Shown piece by piece: positions 369 through 13,639 of a DNA stretch of 64,000 nt. The translations under genes and the position numbers were made by a program. The stretch's first letter is position 1, and each line of letters starts with the position of its first letter. Under the pieces are notes generated by a model. That model saw only the letters and a program-made list of their open reading frames with translations. It was not told the DNA's origin and made no database searches. Source of the stretch: Promethearchaeota archaeon (GTDB taxonomy: Archaea > Asgardarchaeota > Lokiarchaeia > Sigyniarchaeales > SOKP01); contig JAHPZE010000017.1 in NCBI GenBank assembly GCA_019058365.1, positions 1 to 64,000 on the forward strand. Reading direction: 5' to 3'.

Positions 369-1389
369 TTTTAAAACACTTGTAAAATAGATAAAAAATC
401 AAATTTTTTTTTACATCTTTATACAAAATTCTTGGATATTAAGTAATGATATATAAGTTCAATTAATAATTTAGTTTCCTAAATTTTCAAAATTTATACT
501 TGAAAACAAAGAGTTTTGTTCTATTTCTTTACATAAATTAGAGTTTTCACCAAATAAAGATGCAACTCTATTCTAAGATATTTTTGCTTAACATTACTTT
601 TTTATTAACATCATCTTCTTTTGTAAACATATCTGATCTCTGTATTAAATTTAGATTTATTAATTTAAATTGATATTATACTTTAAATATAAATGCTTTC
701 GATTTCATTTTTAAAAAAGGATACTTACATACAAAAACAGTTAGTTAAATAATTTAAAACAATTCTTGTGGCAAAAATGTTAATGATGTTGGTTTTTTGA
801 GATTATCTTTTTTGTTTCAATATTAACATTTTTGTGTTCAAATATTCAATTTGTATGTAATTAGAAATTTCTTAAATAAAATTTAACACTTAAAACACTC
901 TTATTTATGTAATTCTTTTAAAATAATGTATCTAAATATTTTAAAAAATTATAAAGTTTTTTTTAAAAAATTAGTATAAATCCTTGTTGGCATATGATAA
1001 TTCGCTTTTTTCAAATGATAAAAAAAATTGTGCTTTAAATTGGGGCAACAATTTTCTTATAACAAAACTTTAAATATTTTTTTTCATATATGTTTTTTAG
1101 TTCAAAATTGAGAAAAATACAAACAATCCAAAAAAAATTAATATTTTGCATCAAAAAAAATAAAATGGTGTAAATTATTTTGTATTGAGGTTACTATATT
1201 ATTAAACAACATAATTGTAATTCAAAAACATTGAATCTACAAAAAATCCGCAGTATGTAAATATGATCGCAATGAATAATGCTCAAAATATTATTAATAA
1301 CTCGGGAAAGATACAAATGCTCGGTTATAATTTAATTGATATTCTTAATATTAAAGATTTTATAATTTAAAGAAGAGAGGTAAATAAAA

Positions 1390-1617
1390 CTGTCTGAGAA
1401 ACAAGAAAATAAAGGAAAAAATCAATATCACTTCTTTCTTTCTAAATCGGTTTGGGAAAAATTTGTCGTTGACCCTTATAATATAAAAGAAATGGTAAAA
1501 GCAGGTCAAATAAAAAAGTTACCAAAATTCTTAGATGATATAAATAGCATCTATAATTATCGAGGTGAGATTATCCGTATAATTAATCTCAAAATGAAAT
1601 TAAATTTAGATGAATAA
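1390..1617 (+). pseudogene. Truncated CheW-like ORF (75 codons, CTG start)
   Basis: Manual translation gives QYHFF..EKFVVDPYNIKEMVKAGQIKKLPKFLDDINSIYNYRGEIIRIINLKMKLNL, matching the N-half of CheW (F....E.YAI...V.EI....IT.VP.......G.INLRGEIIPVIDL). GAGG lies just upstream; stop at 1615-1617. Confidence 0.6.
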
Positions 1618-8594: not shown

Positions 8595-9812
8595 TTGGGT
8601 TTTAAAACAATGGATAAACAATTGATAGATTTTTTACAAACACGGATGAAAAGAGATGTCAATGTAGGAATTTATGGTATATTTGATTCAGAATCAATCA
8701 GGTTCTATGAAGAAACAAGTGTAGATATCCGACCTCCCTTTTTTAGAGATGTAGATCGTATTGTCCATTCAAAAGCTTATGCTCGCTATATTGATAAATC
8801 TCAGGTTTTTTTCAATGTAAATAATGCTAATATCACTCATCGTTCGCTTCATGTTCATATAGTTTCAAGAATGGCTCGCCAAATTGGGCGAGTTTTAAGA
8901 CTTAATACAGATCTTATTGAAGCAATTGCCTTAGGGCACGATATTGGTCATTCTCCATTTGGTCATTTAGGTGAAGAGATACTAAATGATATTAGCAGAA
9001 ATTATAATATAGGAAGTTTTAGTCATAATGCTCAAGGTGTACGATGGCTTTCCTGCCTTGAAAGAAGATTTCCAGAAAAACCAGCGAAAGGACTTAATTT
9101 GAGCTTACAAGTTCTTGATGGAATACTTTGCCATGATGGAGAAGTAAATGAACAAAAATTAAAGCCAATTAAAAGAAATGGTAAAACATGGGAAGATCAT
9201 TTTAGAGAATATGAAGACTGTTTTAAGGACAATAAAATTAAGCGAATTCCGATGTCGTATGAGGCTATTGTCACAAGATTTGCTGATACAATTAGTTATA
9301 TTGGTAGGGATATTGAAGATGCAATACTACTGAAATTTATTAAGAGAAAAGATATTCCAGAAAATTGTAAGAATGTTCTTGGAGATACAAATCCTAAGAT
9401 AATAAACACCCTTATTACTGATTTATTAATCTATAGCTTAGATACTGATGAGATTGGCTATAGTACTGAAATTTTTCAAGCTTTAAAGGAATTAAAAGCA
9501 TTTAATTATGAAATGATTTATGTTAGAAGAGATTTACTTAAGAAGAATTCTTCAGATAAAACATTCTTAGATAAACTAAAAGCAAAATTTGAACTCATCT
9601 TCGAAAATTCTTTAAAAGATTTAGAAACAGATCATTATAGTTCTCCTATTTTTAAAGATCATATAGAATATATAGATGATCAGAATTATAGTACATATTT
9701 TAAACCTCTCAAAAAGAGTAAGCAATTAACCTTAATAGCGAGAGATTATATCGCAGGCATGTCTGATAAATATTTTAATGATATATACGATCTTTTTCAA
9801 AAAAATAAATGA
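8595..9812 (+). CDS. HD-domain dGTP triphosphohydrolase-like protein (start may be ATG 8610)
   Basis: RDVDRIVHS, KSQVF, HDIGHSPFGH.GE, H.G, AD.ISY..DIEDA and RDYIAGMSD motifs. Confidence 0.88.
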   Translation: MGFKTMDKQLIDFLQTRMKRDVNVGIYGIFDSESIRFYEETSVDIRPPFFRDVDRIVHSKAYARYIDKSQVFFNVNNANITHRSLHVHIVSRMARQIGRVLRLNTDLIEAIALGHDIGHSPFGHLGEEILNDISRNYNIGSFSHNAQGVRWLSCLERRFPEKPAKGLNLSLQVLDGILCHDGEVNEQKLKPIKRNGKTWEDHFREYEDCFKDNKIKRIPMSYEAIVTRFADTISYIGRDIEDAILLKFIKRKDIPENCKNVLGDTNPKIINTLITDLLIYSLDTDEIGYSTEIFQALKELKAFNYEMIYVRRDLLKKNSSDKTFLDKLKAKFELIFENSLKDLETDHYSSPIFKDHIEYIDDQNYSTYFKPLKKSKQLTLIARDYIAGMSDKYFNDIYDLFQKNK

Positions 9813-9882
9813 ATCCTGTTTTTATACTTTAGATTTACTTTCATAAACATATTATATCCATATCATATTGATATTTAATTTT

Positions 9883-10030
9883 AAAAAGGGTGGATCACAC
9901 CGTGGAGGAATATAGTAAAAAAGTATTTTCAGTTTATACGGGGTTTTTTTTCAGTCACACGGGGTTATTAAAAATTAGGTTTTTTAAACTGATATCTTTT
10001 TGAGTCCTCCAATGATATGGTGTGGTCCAA
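9883..10030 (-). ncRNA. Candidate ~145-nt structured non-coding RNA
   Basis: Four nested complementary segments (9891-9901/10019-10029, 9903-9909/10005-10011, 9918-9923/9996-10001, 9929-9936/9985-9992). On the minus strand, a TATA-like TTTTTATT lies ~25 nt upstream and a T-tract directly follows the terminal stem. Confidence 0.55.
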
Positions 10031-10229
10031 GTTATTATATAGTACTTAGTAAATAAAAATTTATCCTAATTTTTTTATTAATTAAAATTTCCTTTTAATT
10101 AAGAATTATAATAAAATAACGCCAGATATCAAATCTAAGGTAAAGTTTTTTAGAAATTTTAAATATTAAAGAATTAATTACAATAGATTTTATTAAATGC
10201 GGTCTAATCCTTTGGAATATAAAAAATTT

Positions 10230-10302
10230 AGCGGATTGGTGTAGAGGTCAAGCATTTGGGACTCTGAATCCCGAGACAGCGGTTCGAATCCGCTATCCGC
10301 TA
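10230..10302 (+). tRNA. tRNA-Gln(CTG)
   Basis: Acceptor AGCGGAT/ATCCGCT (A1-U72, typical of archaeal tRNA-Gln), anticodon arm TGGGA-CT-CTG-AA-TCCCG, T-loop TTCGAAT. Confidence 0.95.
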
Positions 10303-10321
10303 TTTTCTTTTTATTATAATC

Positions 10322-11266: not shown

Positions 11267-13639
11267 TTACAATTTAATCGATCTTGCGATAACATTTCTA
11301 AAATTCTCGATATCATTCACTAACTTATCTGCTAACTCATCAGAAATTTTATCATCTTTACCAAATTTGTTCAATTCGGTAAGCCAGTATTCCATTCTCC
11401 CTAGAATAGCTTCATTTTCTCCTAAAATCTTTCTCACACGAACAAAAGTATCATGTAGCTTAGTTCTAATGTTTTGAGCTTTCCACCTAAGCATGCAATA
11501 ATCAGAGATTTCTGCTAAATTTTGAGTTATTGCCATTACATCAATTGTTTTTTCCCTTTCATCCGATTTAATCTTCCTTATTATGTTGATTTCTTCAAAT
11601 AATAACTCAATTATCTTAGCAAGGAAGCCTGTTAGTTGTCCTGGATGGTTACACCAAACTCTAACCTCTAATGACTGATTAGCCTCAGAAACGTAGATTC
11701 GAGTTATGATTCTACCTCCTCCGACCTTCGCTTCGGAACAGTGCCAACTTTCTGCCTCATATTTTCCTTTAGCATCATTACCTTCATGAGAAGTTACAGT
11801 ACTTACCTCAAAACGTTTTATTGTCCTGACACCTGCCCGAAAAGCCAGACGAGGATCTATATCTGCAATTAAGAAAGCGCGAGCGTCATTCGGAAGATCT
11901 GCGATTGCTATTTGAATATCTTCGATTGTTGCTAAACACGACACAACCAAGGGGCATTTTATTTGGACCTCTTTTTTTCGAATATGTACAGTTCTTTTAT
12001 CCCCTGAGGCTGTTTTGTAGATAACATCACCACCGATATTTGAGATTCCACATTCTTTTGGTTCTAAATAGAAATCCACACCCCTAGAATTCTTTGCTTC
12101 GATAAATGGGATATTTATGAGAGGATCTTTAGTTTTATAACTAGAAGGAACATCTAAAAGGACTTTTACTGAATTAATCGCCATATCACTTTGATTTCGT
12201 ACAACTACCTTCATATGTAACTGTCCTCCGATAAAATCATAATCACGAACTACTTCAACATTCCCTCCATCAGTAGATTCTGTAGTTGGTTTTAGTTCCG
12301 CATGAGATTTTGATTCAATTGGGACAGAATAAGCTACAAATGTTCTTTTTGCCATGTCAATATAACCATCAATATCACCACGCGCAATAATCTGTGCTAA
12401 ATTTTCTTCTATACTTGCTTCTGTAACTCCTAATCGATTTGAAAGTTCTCTTAAAGGCATAGTTCTATAAGCTCTAGCGATTTCCTTTATTTTTTTTTCT
12501 AAATGCTTGTTAGTCATGAATTCTCTTCTTTGAGTAAAAATTCCCTTGATTGTACCTGTTTTAATTAACTCGTGAAGACTTTTTCTTGCTAACTCTACAG
12601 CTATTTTCAATTTTAAGGCAAGTTTAGAGAGTTCAAATAACCCTGTTTCTTTAGAATAATCTTTAATATCTTTATAAATTTGATCTGATGTAATAATTTC
12701 ATATCCACGATCTGCGAAAAACCCATTTACTGCCTTTGCTCTCATTAAATTGACACAAAATGATTTGATAAGTTCTTTTGGAATATTAAATTTATTAGCA
12801 AGGTCTTTTAAAGAGACTCTGCCTTTATTTTTAATTTCTTTGATTAGATTGTCCATTATGTATTTTTGAGTGTAATAGATCTCTTTATCTAACGAGAATG
12901 ATCCTTTTATCTGGTATTGGTTAATTAACTTGTAAATCACCTTTGTGGCAACTTCAGAACTCATATCAAGCATTACACCTAAATCCGCAACTTTAATTAT
13001 TCCTTCATCATGGAATTTTGCAAGTATGTTCTCACGCATTTCTGAAGATATATGATAAAACATCTGATTTTTTTGATCTATAATACCATAGATTCGTTCT
13101 TCATCCATATATTTATTAATAAATTTTATCATTTGTTCTGCAGAAATATTGAATGAATTCATTATTGTTGAAAAGTTAGTAAGTGGAGCTCGTTTTAATA
13201 AGTCTAAAAAACAATTGGGACAAATTTCTTTTCCTATTATGGATCGCAATTTTTTACTACATAATATTAATCTATTTCCTTTAATAAGATTATATCTTAT
13301 CGCTTCCCTAGCAAGCTTTTCCTTTGAAGGAAAGAATAATCCAGGTGTTTTTAAGTACGAATTCCATGACTCAGGGCAATTGGGATTGGTGCATTCTAAA
13401 TAATACTGTCCAGATGACAATCTTTCTAATCTTAAAAGATGGTTACATACGGGACATTCACTATTTTCTACAACTGTACATTTAAAATTTCTTTCAATGG
13501 CTTTAACTTTTGAGTAAAATAGATTATGTTTTTTACACTCATGTGTTTCAGTTGTAGCTATATGATTAATGCAGAAACTGGATTTGCATTTTTCACATGT
13601 AAAATCGATTTTTTGGTTTTCACAGAATAAACATTTCAT
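11267..13639 (-). CDS. Multidomain protein: AN1-like Zn finger, Zn ribbon, five PCI/UFL1-like wHTH repeats, adaptin-appendage-like C-terminal module
   Basis: CxxC-x8-CxxC-x4-CxxH-x6-HxC at the N-terminus; ~60-aa repeats ending in G.(I/F)...; last repeat has a canonical PCI pattern; beta-sandwich plus alpha/beta platform after residue 460. Confidence 0.65.
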   Translation of the reverse strand: MKCLFCENQKIDFTCEKCKSSFCINHIATTETHECKKHNLFYSKVKAIERNFKCTVVENSECPVCNHLLRLERLSSGQYYLECTNPNCPESWNSYLKTPGLFFPSKEKLAREAIRYNLIKGNRLILCSKKLRSIIGKEICPNCFLDLLKRAPLTNFSTIMNSFNISAEQMIKFINKYMDEERIYGIIDQKNQMFYHISSEMRENILAKFHDEGIIKVADLGVMLDMSSEVATKVIYKLINQYQIKGSFSLDKEIYYTQKYIMDNLIKEIKNKGRVSLKDLANKFNIPKELIKSFCVNLMRAKAVNGFFADRGYEIITSDQIYKDIKDYSKETGLFELSKLALKLKIAVELARKSLHELIKTGTIKGIFTQRREFMTNKHLEKKIKEIARAYRTMPLRELSNRLGVTEASIEENLAQIIARGDIDGYIDMAKRTFVAYSVPIESKSHAELKPTTESTDGGNVEVVRDYDFIGGQLHMKVVVRNQSDMAINSVKVLLDVPSSYKTKDPLINIPFIEAKNSRGVDFYLEPKECGISNIGGDVIYKTASGDKRTVHIRKKEVQIKCPLVVSCLATIEDIQIAIADLPNDARAFLIADIDPRLAFRAGVRTIKRFEVSTVTSHEGNDAKGKYEAESWHCSEAKVGGGRIITRIYVSEANQSLEVRVWCNHPGQLTGFLAKIIELLFEEINIIRKIKSDEREKTIDVMAITQNLAEISDYCMLRWKAQNIRTKLHDTFVRVRKILGENEAILGRMEYWLTELNKFGKDDKISDELADKLVNDIENFRNVIARSIKL

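Follow-up and report, generated by a model that had tools for sequence, protein, structure and literature searches.

A Single-Copy Structured RNA Gene of a Lokiarchaeia Family and a Putative Bulge-Helix-Bulge Intron in Its Relatives

Introduction

What is the element of nested inverted arms that lies between a dGTPase-like gene and a tRNA-Gln gene in the 64,000-nt stretch of Lokiarchaeia DNA analysed here (the window)? It could be the gene of a stable RNA, in which case its strand, class, and role have to be accounted for, or it could be a DNA element. The initial annotation, made from the letters of the window, had proposed an independent small RNA gene with a slight preference for the plus strand, and a MITE relic as the alternative. 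The element and its neighbours are as follows.

8595–9812, plus strand: HD-domain dGTPase-like gene, convergent neighbour (domain match)
9884–10030, minus strand: small structured RNA gene, about 140–146 nt (covariance model matches at 9888–10032, conserved promoter, covariation)
10229–10303, plus strand: tRNA-Gln(CUG), divergent neighbour (tRNA call)

Results

The Locus

The nested arms described in the initial annotation, TGGATCACACC (9891–9901) with GGTGTGGTCCA (10019–10029), TGGAGGA (9903–9909) with TCCTCCA (10005–10011), AAAAAG (9918–9923) with CTTTTT (9996–10001), and TCAGTTTA (9929–9936) with TAAACTGA (9985–9992), were all located at the positions given for them, as were two repeat copies (9926–9945 and 9948–9966), a TATA-like sequence, TTTTTATT, on the minus strand (10059–10052), and a minus-strand T5 run (9887–9883). 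The 150-nt stretch folds better than 200 of 200 shuffled sequences on either strand (z = −3.78 for the plus and −3.59 for the minus strand). An Rfam scan and a count of genomic copies had been suggested; the element has no Rfam match, and there is one copy of it within the 4.7-Mb genome, 80 nt behind the stop codon of the dGTPase-like gene.

Several other features of the locus were recorded. A palindrome, ATATCA-TAT-TGATAT, is found just downstream of the RNA (window positions 9860–9874) in many genomes of the genus, though not family-wide; it is a possible operator. A 790-amino acid protein encoded on the minus strand (11267–13639), with a Cys/His-rich N-terminus and matches to PCI, UFL1, and DDRGK, is syntenic with the RNA locus. 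The body of the window tRNA-Gln(CUG) has stems unlike those of the syntenic tRNA-Gln of most relatives, while its flanks are conserved; this version is common to the nearest genomes only, and a gene replacement is possible.

Strand and Promoter

The following signals flank the RNA.

10060–10066, minus strand: BRE-like purine-rich element, family consensus GATA-R-A (64 of 73 orthologs)
10052–10059, minus strand: TATA box TTTTTATT, 31 nt ahead of the first G in helix P1 (conserved in orthologs)
9883–9890, minus strand: CCC followed by U5, a terminator-like pyrimidine tail (downstream pyrimidine content)

A TATA-like box at −34 to −22 was present in 57 of 73 orthologs on the minus strand versus 5 of 73 on the plus strand, and the orthologs carry, on the minus strand, BRE-like GATA-R-A and TTTT(T)AT about 31 nt upstream of the closing stem. 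The first 15 nt downstream of the RNA are 63% pyrimidines; 5S genes are followed by the same C/T tail. The preference for the plus strand was not borne out, since the promoter is minus-only and the G-U cells counted over 74 orthologs number 20 for the minus strand versus 11 for the plus strand. The G-U pair T9895–G10025, from which that preference came, is indeed present in the window, but it is a local variant, and G-U pairs of the family as a whole favour the minus strand. The other part of the proposal, an independent small RNA gene with a minus-strand promoter, is upheld by the orthologs, by promoter conservation, and by the covariation described below. Judged from sequence comparison, the element is almost certainly a real minus-strand RNA gene that would be transcribed from its own BRE/TATA promoter. 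We infer that the RNA has its 5′ end near 10028–10032 and its 3′ end near 9884–9891.

Distribution in Lokiarchaeia

BLAST searches returned strong orthologs in about 25 of the 36 genomes of the genus. Of 135 genomes from one Lokiarchaeia family, 94 gave a single match to a covariance model of the RNA. With a refined model, the RNA was found in 92 of 126 family genomes, representing 10 genera, and in none of 24 genomes from other families of the class. When 400 genomes of the phylum were searched with the exact core pattern, matches outside the family were no more than about as frequent as those to the reversed control. No homologs outside the family were found among the 20–150 candidates scored per genome, so diverged ones may escape. 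The viral contigs searched contained a single match, which looks unrelated. Three near-complete genomes that have no RNA are also devoid of both neighbouring genes, so the locus is probably unassembled there, and many absences of the RNA are probably assembly gaps. In genus g18, the RNA was not found, both neighbours are present, and the locus is rearranged. The RNA is therefore not universal, being absent from the g18 searches and from those outside the family; the locus is ancestral in the family.

The RNA and its upstream flank, which contains the promoter, move or invert independently of the neighbouring genes, and the RNA outlasts them. The dGTPase-like neighbour in particular is dispensable for the RNA, which persists after inversion or loss of that gene.

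Five records titled Hodarchaeota or Thorarchaeota (L125, L126, L129, L130, and L142) hold the Lokiarchaeia RNA locus, and several of them match contigs of genomes from the same family; the titles are probably mislabelled.

Helices and Conserved Motifs

Comparison of the orthologs leads to the following layout, given in the 5′ to 3′ direction of the RNA.

10020–10028, minus strand: 5′ arm of P1, the 9-bp closing stem (covariation)
10005–10010, minus strand: 5′ arm of P2, GGAGGA (covariation)
9996–10001, minus strand: 5′ arm of P3, pairing with 9918–9923
9985–9992, minus strand: 5′ arm of P4, UCAGUUUA, pairing with 9929–9936 (compensatory changes)
9970–9978, minus strand: CUAA and a pyrimidine tract, loosely Sm-site-like (lenient pattern in 72 of 74 orthologs)
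9948–9966, minus strand: motif A, invariant single-stranded core CCCCGUG^UGACUGAAAA (ortholog comparison)
9929–9947, minus strand: motif B, A-rich sequence and CCCCGU, followed by the 3′ strand of P4 (ortholog comparison)
9918–9923, minus strand: 3′ arm of P3, pairing with 9996–10001
9904–9909, minus strand: 3′ arm of P2, UCCUCC (covariation)
9892–9900, minus strand: 3′ arm of P1 (covariation)

Covariation in relatives, which the initial annotation had named as a check, is seen in both outer helices: in counts made on an alignment fitted to the structure, with the kinship of the related orthologs ignored in the statistic, double-sided changes occur in 7 of 9 pairs of P1 and 5 of 6 pairs of P2 (12 of 15 in total), and the cells are paired in 99%, 95%, and, for the two helices together, 97.6% of cases. 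None of 500 shuffles reached this level, and slid controls were all far lower. P3 is kept at the genus level only. For P4, L100 and L109 show compensatory changes, and genus g28 has no such helix.

Within the A-rich loop, three motifs are conserved: CUAA with its pyrimidines; motif A, in which CCCCGUG precedes ACUGA; and another CCCC run, located ahead of the P4 strand. The CUAA and its pyrimidine tract are, as far as can be judged from the alignment, probably single-stranded; the U tract has C substitutions in g21, g22, and g27 without compensation. Motif A tolerates spacers of 0–18 nt, and the order of motifs A and B is swapped in g19, g20, and g27. The two repeats had been considered equivalent, which they are not: the ACUG of one copy is a strand of a covarying helix, whereas the invariant motif corresponds to the other. 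The suggestion that the RNA sequesters a Shine–Dalgarno sequence against its complement also had to be abandoned, since GGAGG is present in only 61 of 74 orthologs and is replaced jointly with its partner, which makes it a helix strand and not a conserved Shine–Dalgarno element. Ortholog lengths range from 110 to 192 nt and occupy all three frames; the RNA is thus non-coding. In one ortholog (L267, genome G068), an extra structured insert of ~50 nt follows motif B.

Known RNA Classes and DNA Elements

The nested inverted arms and the position shortly behind the dGTPase stop codon would suit a DNA element (a MITE relic, an origin or ORB-like repeat, or an operator) or a structure in the 3′ untranslated region of the dGTPase mRNA, and the sequence TTTCAGT..GGGG is one we take to be loosely similar to archaeal ORB boxes. 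This reading is very improbable. There is one copy per genome, syntenic across the family and without target site duplications, which disposes of the MITE alternative; the promoter is strand-specific, the G-U covariation is that of an RNA, and an RNA-splicing motif interrupts the core. Moreover, an element that inverts or moves relative to the dGTPase-like gene together with its own upstream flank, and outlives its neighbours, is neither a MITE nor a dGTPase 3′ untranslated region. A strongly diverged or partial representative of some known class (a C/D or H/ACA guide, a 6S-like RNA polymerase decoy, a Y-like RNA, or a degenerate or multi-intron tRNA) is quite unlikely as well. It would account for two CUGA words that resemble D boxes, each after a C-rich stretch, for the interrupted-rod shape, and for a 3′ end that looks like a stem followed by A-CC. 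However, there is no Rfam match, no C box, ACA tail, or conserved pocket, and a T arm is lacking even from the 110-nt ortholog; no TROVE gene was found in 5 genomes, and the 5S, SRP, and RNase P genes are elsewhere.

The individual candidates were rejected on the following grounds. Models of 5S rRNA, SRP RNA, and RNase P RNA did not match the element, and all three genes are on other contigs. Neither ARAGORN nor Rfam called a tRNA, multi-intron forms included, and the T-loop motif occurs in no ortholog. For a box C/D sRNA, the consensus has no C box (RUGAUGA), and the best matches to rRNA are 8–9 nt long, short of the 10–12 nt of such guides, the one in 23S being uncompensated; for an H/ACA RNA, the tail is variable, and the internal loop varies in length and sequence. 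For a Y RNA, TROVE (PF05731) is found in 0 of 5 genomes, and P1 has no bulge. A circularly permuted RNA gene is not indicated, the P1–P2 loop measuring 2–24 nt by 1–7 nt between helices of 9 and 6 bp, with no bulge-helix-bulge (BHB) formed by the ends. A micro-ORF was dismissed on the lack of conserved start codons and the spread of lengths over three frames, and a SECIS element on its location on the opposite strand and the lack of an in-frame UGA in the upstream gene. A T-box likeness of GGGTGGA is not conserved. As to ORB or origin sequences, the genome has no motif clusters, and the putative RNA intron of relatives interrupts the motif.

A BHB Insert in Motif A of Relatives

At least 20 distinct relatives from three genera carry an insert of 29–32 nt at one fixed site in motif A. 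The RNA of the window is intron-less; the position of the insert in relatives falls between 9958 and 9957. The sequences read CCCG, UGN, a hairpin, NGGG, and AAN. The BHB central helix has 4 of 4 pairs in 16 of 20 inserts and 3 of 4 pairs in the remaining 4, and since the inserts may be homologous, the 20 sequences may not stand for 20 independent events. Pairing peaks at register 0, both bulges are exactly 3 nt long (3-4-3 geometry), and the intron-side helix h′ is a hairpin in every insert folded, with divergent sequences. The exon-side helix h of the strict hBHBh′ form is absent, AAAC facing CUG, so that only the relaxed HBh′ form is present. The introns of the neighbouring tRNA-Gln in relatives, 29 nt long and with 3–4 of 4 helix pairs, are equally imperfect. 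The BHB is the substrate of the archaeal splicing endonuclease, as described in a census of Asgard tRNA introns (bioRxiv 10.64898/2026.10.13.758758), and enzymes of the (alpha-beta)2 and epsilon2 types cleave its relaxed form (PMC7714728). The genome contains two EndA-domain genes, at G000:C26 and C12.

A canonical BHB is cut after the second base of each bulge. Such cuts would yield CCCCGUG^ACUG or CCCCGUG^UGACUG, the two forms commonly seen without an intron (50 of 56); of these, the window carries CCCCGUG^UGACUG. On a dGTPase tree, intron presence changes 9 times, with at least 8 changes forced by well-supported branches. In most clades, the intron-less sisters hold the splice product predicted from their intron-bearing neighbour, the UG variant included. 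The clade joining the window to L024 is among them; L111 and L013 depart from the pattern within their clades.

An alternative would have a genuine RNA whose insert, an optional expansion hairpin, always stays in the molecule, the short forms having arisen by deletion. The missing exon helix would then be explained, as would variable hairpins elsewhere in the loop and the non-BHB spacers that some lineages (g21, g23, and g20) have in motif A, lineages in which an unspliced insert may be tolerated. An expansion hairpin, however, does not predict an insert length fixed at 29–32 nt, the exact 3-4-3 geometry, or the recurrence of identical junctions between lineages. Further, a micro-homology deletion between the TGA repeats would yield ACUG, whereas UGACUG, the form expected from splicing, is what the sisters of UGACUG-type inserts carry; because the deletion predicts the other variant, chance deletion explains the short forms less well than does precise loss linked to splicing or gain at a fixed site. 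We therefore regard the unspliced hairpin as unlikely. Splicing of the insert is the preferred reading: the 30-nt intron is very likely spliced out in the relatives, and the RNA is probably a substrate of the tRNA-splicing endonuclease.

Known archaeal BHB introns (in pre-tRNA, pre-rRNA, and a few mRNAs) are similar to the insert in their arrangement of a 3-nt bulge, a 4-bp helix, and a 3-nt bulge, in the intron-side stem, in the size of ~30 nt, and in patchy presence among close relatives; the intron of the neighbouring tRNA-Gln is of the same size. They differ in their host, which here is not a tRNA, rRNA, or mRNA, and in the exon-side helix, which is missing here.

Introns and Permutation in Other RNA Genes

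In relatives L004–L023, the tRNA-Gln gene next to the element is interrupted in a patchy manner by introns, which sit in its anticodon, D, or T loop. The 5S rRNA gene of the genome (G000:C37, about 1300–1465, minus strand; L205) is circularly permuted between BHB-forming flanks, and joining restores a canonical loop C. Permuted relatives were found at L144–L157 and L160, with two permutation points in the genus, and some copies have an additional insert of ~29 nt. The permutation explains why Rfam scores for 5S are below threshold. The SRP RNA (G000:C54:27346–27667) is complete in length, although its 75 bits fall short of the Rfam threshold of 96.5. At G000:C35 (about 86800–94200), the 3′ end of 23S rRNA is present in several partial copies spaced by a few kb, and others were found in G001, G008, G011, and G107; this suggests elements that integrate at the 3′ end of 23S.

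Discussion

Proposed Function

We propose that the element specifies a stand-alone, single-copy stable RNA, the minus-strand transcription of which would start from a BRE/TATA promoter of its own. P1 and P2 would lock the ends of the RNA, while the A-rich loop would display CUAA with the U/C tract, CCCCGUG^(UG)ACUGAAA, and the second CCCC run. In many relatives, a BHB intron of ~30 nt would interrupt motif A and sequester CCCG, and the tRNA splicing endonuclease and a ligase would remove it, restoring motif A. Before splicing the C-runs are masked, whereas in the spliced RNA they find no partner, so splicing would free them. The RNA would be part of an RNP, as a scaffold or a titrating decoy whose motifs are read by proteins; a C-tract binder would be one candidate reader and, for the U tract, an Sm/Lsm ring another. 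We put at about even the chance that the RNA is a stable RNP component whose single-stranded C-rich and U-rich motifs are offered to protein. The protein-binding motifs proposed in the initial annotation are plausible.

A less probable reading is a trans-acting RNA, the two C-rich seeds of which would pair with G-rich sites in rRNA, pre-5S RNA, or mRNA. C-rich loops pair with G-rich targets in the bacterial 6C, cuckoo, and RNAIII RNAs, and the invariant, unpaired C-runs without an intramolecular partner are what such a mechanism would call for. Complementary sites exist: ACGGGGUU is present in the 16S and 23S H100 of this genome, and a perfect 17-nt complement of motif A lies within one CDS, that of a membrane protein, in four g28 genomes (L259–L261 and L263). 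However, family f2, from which this RNA is absent, conserves the H100 site just as well, and the GGGC/GGGU variants of the site are uncompensated; the CDS complement is not conserved in other orthologs, this genome included; and the match to the pre-5S junction is missing in the RNA-bearing G010 and has an uncompensated variant in G017. A guide role for 23S H100, the pre-5S junction, or the membrane-protein mRNA is accordingly unsupported, none of these targets being conserved or compensated. The variable spacing and order of the motifs also fit modular protein sites better than one continuous duplex. We favour an RNP scaffold or decoy over a base-pairing guide.

Comparison with known systems helps to define what such an RNP RNA would be. 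Protein-sequestering sRNAs of the CsrB/RsmZ type, which act through many GGA loops, are likewise stand-alone RNAs with repeated short single-stranded motifs; here, in contrast, there are two non-equivalent C-rich motifs, and GGAGG is paired. Sm-class small RNAs and ligands of archaeal SmAP proteins share a U-rich tract between stems, and the genome has four LSm-domain genes, but the canonical Sm site is RAU4-6GR, whereas the U tract here is without the terminal G and tolerates C. Like 6S RNA and Y RNA, the RNA is 100–190 nt long and has paired ends, an interrupted rod, its own promoter, and a U-rich tail; unlike them, it has no Rfam match, no Ro60 gene accompanies it, and conservation is concentrated in apical single-stranded motifs. 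A more specific version, an Asgard snRNA-like RNP RNA that would be Sm/Lsm-bound, independently transcribed, equipped with a conserved single-stranded guide, and active only after removal of a tRNA-type intron by the splicing endonuclease, is a speculative one to which we assign a low probability; if true, it would provide Sm-class nuclear RNAs with a prokaryotic counterpart.

Significance

The literature searched offered no account of a structured small RNA of unassigned class that spans a whole family of Asgard archaea; intergenic language-model preprints gave no description of this RNA either, and it is apparently undescribed. Nor did the literature searched contain a report of a BHB intron in a stand-alone small RNA, which, going by the inserts compared here, would probably be a new type of host for these introns. 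The predicted splice junction provides a sharp and cheap test in sediment metatranscriptomes.

For the Lokiarchaeia, the finding means that a large family has an RNA conserved like a housekeeping gene. Its putative intron would add a stand-alone small RNA to the tRNA, rRNA, and rare mRNA hosts of BHB splicing. Considered alongside the permuted 5S gene that this genome contains, the intron suggests that many stable RNAs of the lineage may be matured by the splicing endonuclease.
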